Assembly (NCBI RefSeq): GCF_003018235.1
Contig: NZ_CP027437.1
Reading direction: 5' to 3' (one strand)
Length of the DNA: 64,000 bases
Source of the DNA: Escherichia coli
Lineage (GTDB): Bacteria > Pseudomonadota > Gammaproteobacteria > Enterobacterales > Enterobacteriaceae
Position numbers: made by a program. Shown in pieces: positions 50,001 through 53,000 of the stretch. Position 1 is the first letter of the stretch. Every line of letters starts with the position of its first letter.

Positions 50001-53000
50001 GAAATACCATATTGCCATCACGCTTCTGTCCGGGGTGACGAAAAAGAGCGTCAGGTCCGCTGTAAAATCTGCGGTGCAGTTGTGGAGCCATTTGACTGGA
50101 TGCTCTCTGTGGCGAAAAGAGAAACCAGACTGGCAGATGATGTAAGGCTCTTGCGCCAGGAGGAACAGGAAAGGCGGAAAAATATAGAAAAGCTAATTCA
50201 GATTGAGCGTAACGCGAAAGCGCGGATACGCAGGGTGACAAAATCCAGAACTGAATAATTAAATTCAGCACTGCAAATAAAAATTAAATCCTTAACCGGA
50301 GGGATTTCTGCACCCTCAGAACATCAGGAGGCCGCCTGAAAGGGCGGCAATGAAAATGACTGAATTAACAAAAGAACAATTAATCGAAGAGGCTAAATTA
50401 AAAATCGCGATTGCGAAATGTCACCCTAATTCAGGAATGGCACGGATAGAGGGGGAGTTATTCAAAATTGCACTGGCATCGCTGGAAGCAGAAGCGCCAA
50501 GTCTGCCTGGTGGTTTCACAATTAAAGAAGCAAAAGAATTACATAAGAATCTGGTTAAAAGTCACGTCAGCAAGGCTTTAAGTGGCGAAAAAATGAAAAA
50601 AGAAAATCGTGATGCTGATTTGCGCTGGATTCATGACGTTATAGTTCGGGCTGCGTGGTTTGTAAAAGCATCACTGGAGCAGAATACGCTAACTGGCAAC
50701 TCTCCGGTAACTCCGGATAGTTGGATAAGCTGTAGTGATCGAATGCCTGAAAAGGGCCAGAACGTGCTTATTTCGGTGAATTTCGATAGCTCTCTGGTTG
50801 AACCGCTAATATGCTCCGCACGCTATACCGGAAGCACCTTTCGGCGCGGAGATGCAACGATTAAGCCGGGTAATGGTATTGAGCAAGCAACTCACTGGAT
50901 GCCTCTACCAGAACCGCCGCAGGAGGTGAGTTAATGAGTTGGCCTGAAGCATTCGCAACGGTAGGAATTGCAATGGCGGTGCGCTGGTGGTGTATTCGAT
51001 TTGCCGCTGGGGATAAAAACGGTTTGCGGGAAAAGGAGAGTTAAGTAGAATTGCTGCGGGTGCTTGAGGCTATCTGCCTCAGGCATGAACACCAAAAGGC
51101 AGATAGAGAAAAGCCCCAGTTAACATTCGGCGTCCGGCAAGGCGCTTAACATTAATCTGAGGCCATATCTATGCTCTACACACATAGGTTAGCCTCTTAC
51201 GTGCCGAAAGGCAAGGAGAAGCAGGCTATGAAGCAGCAAAAGGCGATGTTAATCGCCCTGATCGTCATCTGTTTAACCGTCATAGTGACGGCACTGGTAA
51301 CGAGGAAAGACCTCTGCGAGGTACGAATCCGAACCGGCCAGACGGAGGTTGCTGTCTTCGTAGACTACGAATCTGAGAAGTAAGAGTGACCAGGCGAGGG
51401 AGAAATCCCTCGCCGCCTCTGATGTGTCAGGCATCCTCAACGCACCCGCACTTAACCCGCCTTGGCGGGTTTTGTTTTGTTGTTGTAAATGTTTTTTGTT
51501 TTTATTGTTGTAATTATGTGACGTGACGTTATTGTTAATCAGTGTGCCTTTGCAGTTAGAATTGTGGCTCTTAAGTAGCGCGCATGGAGAAGATGGATAG
51601 GCCCCCGAACAGGGGGAGTGCTATTTATCCAGAAGGATTCTGAAGATGAAAATCGAAGAATTGCGAGAAATTTTAAGTGTAAATGGTCTTTACGCTGTGC
51701 GCGTTGAGAATGGAACCGTTGTCAGCCATTGCCTCATTAAATGTTTGCAATTTCAACAAAAGAAGAGAGGGGCAGCGTTAATTTATTTTGTGGATGGACT
51801 TGTGACGGACGGTTTTATTTTGCGTGAAAATGAATTTGTCACATCATTGTCGTATCTGAAAGAGGCCGGACTTAAGGCTGGTTTTTCTGCTTTTGCTGAT
51901 GAGTGAATTCATCTACAATTCAGGGCTGGGCTGACCCCCCTGCTGAGTAACACCGTGCCACCGGAGAAAGCCGATGGCACGACATGCTAAATCTCACAAT
52001 GCTGAAACTGACCTTGCCTGCGGGCACGGACGGCGATTTTCCGCATCTGAAAAACAACCTTTTTACTACCCGAACTGTACGACGCATGAACTCGGAGAAC
52101 TTGAAGAGTTATACAGCCGTCGCGGATACACAATAATAAAGCAGCTCAATTCTGACGGCAGAACATGGTTTGTTTCGGTGGTATTACCCGTATCAAATCA
52201 TCAGCCACGTACACCACTCTGTTATCGCCAGCGCATCTGGAGGTAACGTGCGGGTATTACTTCGACCTGTTCTGGTTCCTGAACTCGGGCTGGTGGTCCT
52301 TAAGCCAGGCCGTGAATCCATGCAGGTATTCCATAATCCCCGGGTGCTGGTGGAACCGGAACCGAAGAGCATGCGCAATCTGCCGTCCGGAACCGTTCCT
52401 GCTATTCGCCAGCCTCTGGCGGAAGACAAATCATTACTGCCATTTCTCAGCGATGAACGGGTGATTCGTGCCGCTGGCGGCGCTGGCGCATTGTCTGACT
52501 GGCTGTTGCGCCATGTTGCAACCTGCCAGTGGCCTCATGGCGATTACCATCACAGCGAAACCGTCATTCACCGTTACGGTACCGGCGCAATGGTGTTGTG
52601 CTGGCACTGCGACAACCAGCTGCGTGACCAGACATCAGAATCACTGGAACATCTGGCTCAACAAAACCTGTCAGCATGGATGATTGATGTCATCCGCCAC
52701 GCAATAAGCGGTACACAGGAACGGGAGTTATCGCTGGCTGAATTATCCTGGTGGGCGGTCTGCAATCAGGTGGCGGACGCACTACCGGAGGCAGTATTAC
52801 GCCGTTCGCTGGGGTTACCCGTAGAAAAAATCCACTCTGTGTACCGCGAAAGCGACATCGTACCGGGAGCGCAGACTGCCTCCAGCATCCTGAAGCAGCG
52901 CACAAAAAATCTTGCACCGTTGCCTTACGCCCACCAGCAACAAACCACGCCACAGGAAAAGGCGGTGGTCAGCATCACCGTTGATCCGGAGTCACCGGAA

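Follow-up and report, generated by a model that had tools for sequence, protein, structure and literature searches.

An intact hok/mok/sok toxin-antitoxin cassette in the nin-like region of an Stx2j prophage of Escherichia coli

Results

We analyzed a stretch of 64,000 nt of Escherichia coli DNA (contig NZ_CP027437.1 of RefSeq assembly GCF_003018235.1; called the window in the following and numbered from its first letter) and found that its hok/mok/sok locus is an intact type I toxin-antitoxin cassette in the nin-like region of an Stx2j lambdoid prophage. The full cassette is a module of about 440 bp on the plus strand, extending from the −10 element of hok to the terminator (approximately 51046–51481). 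Judged from the sequence, everything that the paradigm of the plasmid R1 hok/sok system requires is present here, and by analogy with that system we consider it very likely that the locus is a complete, apparently functional cassette of the hokW/hokD subtype, which would act by an R1-type mechanism. As a discovery it is nothing new: it is an already described element, hokW/sokW, of the hokD type. The initial annotation had assigned a canonical Hok peptide with an overlapping mok-like upstream frame to positions 51100–51400 and had expected a Sok RNA to be encoded opposite the leader. This span covers hok, mok and Sok; it misses 51046–51069, with the hok −10 element and the translational activator (tac), and 51435–51481, with the fold-back inhibition element (fbi) and the terminator.

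A query of 461 bp around the locus was 100% identical to NZ_CP076709.1, the chromosome of E. coli O158:H23 strain CFIAFB20140388, and the gene context was taken from the RefSeq annotation of this identical record. There, the gene is flanked by the replication genes on one side and by the DUF968, Q and stx2j genes on the other, in agreement with the nin-like position proposed initially. Relatives were collected by scanning IMG/VR with the Hok peptide, which yielded 80 loci, and 933W and a Rac-type phage were added. The resulting alignment (A1) comprises 51 distinct sequences including the window's own, 86–95% identical to the window; the counts and entropy values for relatives given below refer to it.

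The toxin gene and the mok reading frame

The coding part of the cassette comprises the following features:

51228–51383, plus strand: hok toxin gene, intact open reading frame (ORF) of 51 aa (MKQQKAMLIALIVICLTVIVTALVTRKDLCEVRIRTGQTEVAVFVDYESEK), Pfam HOK_GEF
51159–51162, plus strand: Shine–Dalgarno (SD) sequence of mok, GAGG, invariant in the relatives
51171–51383, plus strand: mok reading frame of 70 codons with its ATG at 51171, in frame with hok, so that its product would be Hok with an N-terminal extension
51365–51371, plus strand: predicted 7-nt hairpin loop CUACGAA holding the Tyr47 codon UAC (51366–51368)

The Hok peptide matched Pfam PF01848 (HOK_GEF) with 81.1 bits (cut-off 22, E value 4e-23) over 42 of the 42 profile positions. 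Its ORF is free of frameshifts, the conserved residues Cys15 and Cys30 are both present, and the protein is 100% identical to HokW of VT2-Sakai/Sp5 and 933W, so that the expectation of a canonical Hok peptide was borne out. The hok SD sequence AGGAG is located at 51214–51218, and the segment holding it together with the −35 element of Sok has a mean entropy of only 0.027. None of the NCBIfam Hok models was reached: NF007279 (Hok subfamily) scored 53.6 bits against a cut-off of 73 and NF007290 (HokA) 38.8 against 89. Naming of the protein by NCBIfam was dropped due to these scores below the curated cut-offs, which also explain why RefSeq labels it only as 'Hok/Gef family protein'. This label is all that RefSeq marks at the locus; mok, the Sok RNA and the regulatory elements are missing from the annotation.

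The mok-like frame postulated upstream of hok was likewise found, with its own SD sequence, which has two partners in the predicted folds described below: it is sequestered by the upstream complementary box (ucb) in the closed form and pairs with the downstream complementary box (dcb) in the open form. The mok start lies 57 nt upstream of the hok start. The mok ATG is present in 49 of the 51 sequences; the frame is the same as that of hok in 41 and shifted by +1 in seven, and in three relatives a mok of 19 codons has a stop codon overlapping the hok ATG. This variable frame fits the view that translation of mok is what matters, not its product.

The loop around the Tyr47 codon is presumably identical to the anticodon loop of tRNA-Arg(ACG). 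Among the relatives UACG is invariant and UACGAA nearly so. The codon is a likely site of A-to-I editing by TadA, which would recode Tyr to Cys; editing by TadA at the equivalent Tyr codon was reported for hokC, hokD and hokE of K-12 (PMC12214031).

The Sok antisense RNA and its promoter

Opposite the leader we found the gene of the antisense RNA that the initial annotation had expected and left undelineated:

51179 to 51109, minus strand: Sok antisense RNA of 71 nt, transferred from the sokW annotation of 933W, with putative ends
51214 to 51186, minus strand: predicted Sok promoter, with −35 TTGCCT (51214 to 51209), a spacer of 17 nt and −10 TAACCT (51191 to 51186)

The 933W annotation describes sokW as a 71-nt minus-strand RNA with its 5' end 8 nt inside mokW. 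At the equivalent position in the window, the predicted Sok fold (−24.9 kcal/mol, z = −3.0) consists of a single-stranded 5' tail of 15 nt, a long hairpin and a U tail. The tail is complementary to the mok start region at 51165–51179, and pairing in the hairpin is preserved among the relatives through compensatory changes. Three allele-specific substitutions are found at the top of the hairpin, and pairing is preserved there as well.

The Sok start at 51179 lies 7 nt downstream of the −10 element. Both promoter elements are conserved in 51 of the 51 sequences, with entropies of 0.027 for the −35 element and 0.095 for the −10 element (with dcb); the variants TTGACC and TAATCT are nearer to the consensus. 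In Sp5 hokW-sokW, mutation of the −10 element abolished the antitoxin effect (PMC8621323). We defined the promoters by conservation in the family together with the 933W annotation. The single hit of a generic sigma-70 promoter scan (51146–51175, plus strand) was set aside, since it is not conserved in function.

The Rfam model RF01794 ('sok') matched positions 51058–51233 on the plus strand with 117.9 bits, twice the gathering score of 59 (E value 3e-26, full model 1–157). Neither this match nor that of Hok is due to chance. We rejected the hit as the Sok gene because of its plus-strand orientation and its end at the hok AUG. An R1-type plasmid locus (L085) gave the same picture, with a sense-strand match (282–453, plus strand, 87.2 bits) that also stops at the hok AUG. 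We concluded that RF01794 models the target of Sok, the hok leader, rather than the Sok transcript. Annotation pipelines using this model would assign the antitoxin to the wrong strand and to wrong coordinates.

Compared to the Rfam consensus, the Sok/sokT hairpin of the window has an insertion of 16 nt at its top. In four loci (L022, L059, L069 and L071) the hairpin resembles the Rfam consensus and is shorter by about 21 nt (columns 86–106 of A1). A YUNR (U-turn) motif in the loop recognized by Sok is an accessory feature that does not define the family. The predicted target loop in the window (CUCUACACA) has no YUNR motif, which is present in 37 of the 51 sequences, and we treated its absence as a minor departure.

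The hok mRNA and its predicted folds

The regulatory elements of the hok mRNA were assigned by the definitions in PMC9841398:

51046–51051, plus strand: putative −10 element of the hok promoter, TAGAAT, read from the sequence; TAnnAT is invariant in the 51 relatives
51058–51479, plus strand: putative full-length hok mRNA of about 422 nt, with its start placed by the −10 element and Rfam and its end by the terminator
51058–51069, plus strand: tac, GGGUGCUUGAGG, at the 5' end of the mRNA
51060–51086, plus strand: metastable hairpin of the nascent transcript, in which tac pairs with the sequence just downstream
51111–51117, plus strand: ucb (anti-SD), AAGCCCC, pairing with tac in the truncated fold
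51192–51196, plus strand: dcb, GCCUC, pairing with the mok SD in the open form
51393–51414, plus strand: 3' stem-loop (−19.6 kcal/mol, z = −4.1)
51435–51447, plus strand: fbi, CCUCAACGCACCC, forming 12 pairs with tac and one bulged C
51454–51481, plus strand: intrinsic terminator from a terminator scan, with a 7-bp stem (51454–51471) followed by a T tract

The putative transcription start at 51058 coincides with position 1 of the Rfam model, and homology among the relatives breaks just upstream of the hok −10 element. The minimum free energy fold of the full-length mRNA has −172.8 kcal/mol (z = −7.7 against shuffled sequences), and its 5' end pairs with its 3' end. The fold-back 3' element suggested as a check of the locus is thus present: the partner of tac is fbi in the fold of the full-length RNA and ucb in that of the 3'-truncated RNA. 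In the full-length fold, positions 51113–51119 are paired with the mok SD region (51157–51163). When only the first 33 nt were folded, the metastable hairpin had −19.6 kcal/mol (z = −5.1); it corresponds to an element described for R1 hok (PMC9841398). The hairpin of mok SD and dcb (51159–51196) has −13.6 kcal/mol (z = −3.8), and its 5 outer pairs are invariant. These two hairpins and the 3' stem-loop all exceed shuffled sequences significantly in stability. By analogy with R1 (PMC9841398), the hairpin at 51393–51414 is expected to be the 3' end and stabilizer of the processed, translatable mRNA. The terminator is common to most relatives and K-12 hokD, and 933W-type loci diverge there. The terminator scan predicted no intrinsic terminator between the upstream gene and hok.

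Conservation of the switch helices among phage relatives

The helices of the predicted switch are preserved in the relatives as follows:

tac/fbi helix, 12 pairs: 100% paired
tac/ucb helix, 7 pairs: 100% paired
mok SD/dcb helix, 5 pairs: 100% paired
metastable hairpin helix, 11 pairs: 99.8% of cells paired

Controls with slid positions gave about 30–50% pairing per helix and about 40% across the whole structure. Support for the near-invariant switch helices is by conservation and not by covariation. Compensatory changes were seen elsewhere: in the 5' hairpin A-U was replaced by G-C in 16 sequences and C-G by U-A in five, and such changes also occurred in the Sok/sokT hairpin and at three pairs of the 3' hairpin at 51393–51414. 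Across the whole structure, 97 cells showed double changes, compared to 28 ± 4 in shuffles.

The entropy profile fits the functional map. Among the non-coding segments tac is conserved best (mean entropy 0.012), and fbi has a mean entropy of 0.099, with the bulged base as its main variable position and a change from G-C to G-U at one paired position in two relatives. The target of the Sok 5' tail at the mok start varies more than any other part of the transcript ahead of the terminator (mean entropy 0.93), as opposed to the near-invariant tac, fbi and Sok −35 and −10 elements. A hypervariable segment (51163–51185, columns of about 126–147 in A1) occurs in 19 versions among the 51 sequences, and the hairpin is kept in all of them.

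Sequence homologous to the locus is present in 4723 of 5426 complete E. coli genomes, at a median of 2 and a maximum of 10 places per genome. One possible reason for the hypervariability of the Sok tail is diversification, by which the up to 10 hok/sok copies in a genome would be kept from cross-talk. Three same-source pairs of Sok tails were available, on one contig (L041/L070), in one genome (L048/L057) and in the same metagenome sample, maybe from different genomes (L062/L079); the tails differ in all three pairs, and with 19 alleles this comparison has no power. The contig with L041 and L070 (UViG_2681813268_000003) carries two hok/sok cassettes about 3 kb apart with different Sok-tail alleles.

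Proposed mechanism

By analogy with R1, a weak promoter would produce a stable hok mRNA of about 420 nt. In the nascent transcript the 5' tac would be held in the metastable hairpin. Once the transcript is complete, tac would pair with fbi and ucb would sequester the mok SD, so that neither translation nor binding of Sok could occur. Slow trimming of the 3' end back to the hairpin at 51393–51414, a processing step that was shown for R1 (PMC9841398), would remove fbi. Subsequently, tac would switch to ucb, the mok SD/dcb hairpin would form, and mok and then hok would become translatable. The open form would also expose the Sok target, the Sok tail would cover the mok start, and the duplex would be destroyed. 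Sok is expected to be an unstable antisense RNA of 71 nt made from the conserved promoter on the opposite strand. As long as it is made the cell would live; when its supply stops, the stored mRNA would yield Hok, a 51-aa inner-membrane peptide that would collapse the membrane.

Several observations weigh against this picture or against its consequences. The −35-like sequence of hok (TTGCGG, 51024–51029) is weak and not conserved, and in the generic sigma-70 scan neither the hok nor the Sok promoter was above the threshold. Binding of Sok could be slower, as suggested by the predicted target loop lacking YUNR. Relatives that are about 86–95% identical give little independent covariation for helices that never vary. 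The prophage has partly decayed, so that a role linked to induction may be inoperative in the present strain. Finally, chromosomal hok loci tested earlier gave no post-segregational killing (summarized in bioRxiv 10.1101/2025.08.07.668861).

Biological role and alternative explanations

The function of this subtype was studied in Sp5 by Takada et al. in 2021 (PMC8621323). HokW was toxic, and sokW, transcribed from its own promoter, neutralized it, partly via RNase III and Hfq. After the addition of mitomycin C, the sokW RNA disappeared and the hokW mRNA persisted; production of HokW under this condition required RecA and preceded that of endolysin by about 1 h. Deletion of hokW-sokW delayed growth arrest and halved phage release. 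By analogy with Sp5 hokW-sokW, a role in lysis and phage release is the most likely one for the locus in the window, though this is less certain than the mechanism. The cassette would be silent in the lysogen, and upon SOS induction Sok would be lost and Hok made, resulting in faster lysis and more phage release.

The last of the points raised above, the failure of chromosomal hok loci in tests of post-segregational killing, would also be expected if the locus were an inactive relic, similar to hok/sok in sequence and neither regulated nor toxic, as was proposed for most chromosomal hok loci of K-12, the truncated hokD of prophage Qin among them. The positional counterpart hokD of K-12, which lost everything upstream of the position corresponding to 51214, the pseudogenes in the surrounding prophage and the allele without a YUNR motif point in the same direction. 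Unlike in K-12 hokD, all elements are intact here; they are the most conserved parts of the cassette, and Hok is identical to a toxin that was shown to be active (HokW). Decay was seen in two relatives that lack the mok ATG, and none of it was found in the window, where hok has no frameshift and the regulatory RNA elements are present. We therefore regard a relic as very improbable.

The initial annotation had suggested stabilization of the prophage or abortive infection. Both are plausible, and the sole direct experiment, made with the near-identical hokW-sokW, points to lysis and release (PMC8621323). If the same mechanism was selected for prophage addiction, loss of the prophage would remove Sok first and the long-lived mRNA would then yield Hok. 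This is the classic role of R1 hok/sok, and the cassette has kept the combination of a stable mRNA with an unstable antisense RNA. Deletion of hokW-sokW from Sp5 caused no growth phenotype without induction, the measured effect being on lysis and release (PMC8621323); the negative killing tests of chromosomal loci also speak against addiction, and the frameshifted integrase makes loss by excision unlikely. Addiction as the selected role thus appears possible but doubtful. We consider abortive infection, in which a lytic phage would shut off host transcription, Sok would decay and Hok would kill the cell early, to be unlikely. R1 hok/sok on a high-copy plasmid reduced the plating and plaque size of T4 (cited in PMC8621323), an effect that was modest, dependent on copy number and obtained with the R1 type rather than the hokW/hokD type, and while defense genes are frequent in prophages, hok is not enriched beside defense systems.

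A further proposal, also unlikely in our judgement, concerns how the preferred role in lysis and release would be triggered: the cassette could sense induction by transcriptional interference, with antiterminated early transcription meeting the Sok promoter head-on and silencing Sok. The flanking genes were co-oriented with hok in 83 of 83 loci (genes detected with a panel of 10 neighbor proteins). In the window, the cassette lies in the nin (early-right) region, in sense orientation to the N-antiterminated PR operon. In 933W, it is next to attR, shares its strand with the PL operon and becomes sense to PL once excision joins attL to attR. Since the cassette is in sense orientation to PR here and to PL in 933W after excision, antiterminated transcription would oppose the Sok promoter in both. 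Interference, if true, would explain why production of HokW needs RecA, and with it prophage induction, and why sokW is lost and hokW mRNA persists after mitomycin C (PMC8621323).

The practical value of our analysis lies mainly in annotation. The operon driving Stx production carries an intact toxin module, at a distance of about 4 kb upstream of stx2j. Should the finding from Sp5 apply to this prophage, faster lysis could affect the release of phage and toxin, and release of Stx2j might rise.

Prophage context and other features of the window

Neighboring genes on the plus strand, as annotated by RefSeq, are:

50350–50934, plus strand: DUF551 gene, upstream of hok
51646–51906, plus strand: Rem-like ORF of 86 aa, downstream of hok
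approximately 55452–56685, plus strand: stx2j A and B

At the left end of the prophage, an integrase annotated as frameshifted adjoins tRNA-Ser(CGA) at 38394–38483. It is followed by exonuclease, kil, Rha regulator, dicC, replication genes, the DUF551 gene and hok, and after hok by the Rem-like ORF, DUF968, the Q antiterminator, a tRNA, stx2j A and B and lysis genes; all of these from dicC to the lysis genes are on the plus strand. Several further pseudogenes are marked by RefSeq, and an IS200C transposase is inserted between the holin and the stx region. The signs of decay noted here, including the integrase, refer to 38394–39561 and 60034–60492. Given the frameshifted integrase, the pseudogenes and the IS200 insertion, the prophage may be partly defective.

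An ORF of 36 aa directly upstream of hok (50934–51044) overlaps the hok −35 region; it has no family match and recurs beside hok in a subset of the phage loci. Near the stx genes, a tRNA with anticodon CAT (RefSeq: tRNA-Ile) is located at 55210–55285, a second, weak tRNA-like match at 55288–55348, and a full-length match to the small RNA STnc100 (152 bits) directly downstream of stxB at 56765–56971. The early-left part of the prophage encodes small RNAs on the minus strand at 43294–43746, namely a C4 antisense RNA (43294–43381), isrK (43406–43482) and DicF (43695–43746). Elsewhere in the window there are four identical genes for tRNA-Asn(GTT), starting at 18710, 21118, 22942 and 37327 (18710–37402), and, in the chromosomal part, a cobalamin riboswitch at 14317–14491.

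Comparison with known hok/sok systems

The closest described systems are the hokW-mokW-sokW loci of 933W and of Sp5/VT2-Sakai, which encode the identical Hok protein; in 933W this protein is annotated along with near-identical RNA elements, and an experimental study of them dates from 2021. The DNA of 933W is 93.8% identical to that of the window over 418 nt. Its mok is in frame with the same offset of 57 nt, its Sok has the same position and the same length of 71 nt, and it shares tac, ucb, dcb, fbi and the Sok promoter with the window. The Sok RNAs differ at 5 of 15 tail positions and at 3 positions at the top of the hairpin, and the target loop of 933W has a YUNR motif (CUGA) that is lacking in the window allele. 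Homology to the window ends at about 51457, so that the terminator hairpin differs. The location is also different: 933W hokW is found past the tail genes, next to attR, and excision is needed to bring it into sense orientation to the PL operon, while the locus in the window belongs to the nin/PR operon.

The neighbors of hok in the window are those of K-12 hokD (relF) in the cryptic prophage Qin, with the order hok-rem-ydfU (DUF968)-Q antiterminator. From the hok SD to the terminator, including the coding sequence and fbi, the two loci share 94% DNA identity. The same flanking genes (rem, ydfU/DUF968 and Q) and the high DNA identity make the two loci positional orthologs, and RefSeq calls near-full-length matches in other strains hokD. 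Upstream of 51214, a position 14 nt before the ATG, there is no homology to K-12 hokD: relBE replaces tac, ucb and the mok start there, as well as the Sok gene with its −10 element. As K-12 hokD lacks the leader and Sok, the window holds the intact form of the K-12 relic. Among the IMG/VR loci, L053 is truncated in the same way: unrelated sequence replaces the leader, homology starts only about 14 nt before the hok ATG, and hok is kept along with the 3' elements.

The hok/sok (parB) locus of plasmid R1 has the same architecture element for element, including the logic of tac/fbi, tac/ucb and SD/dcb pairing. The view that mok of R1 is out of frame with hok was rejected: in the R1-type plasmid locus mok is in frame and starts 57 nt upstream of hok, as in the window, whose in-frame mok is therefore no peculiarity. 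The Hok protein of R1 is only 44% identical to that of the window, and the carriers differ, being a plasmid for R1 and a prophage here. Post-segregational killing is known from R1 and not from the hokW/hokD subtype, to which the cassette of the window belongs.

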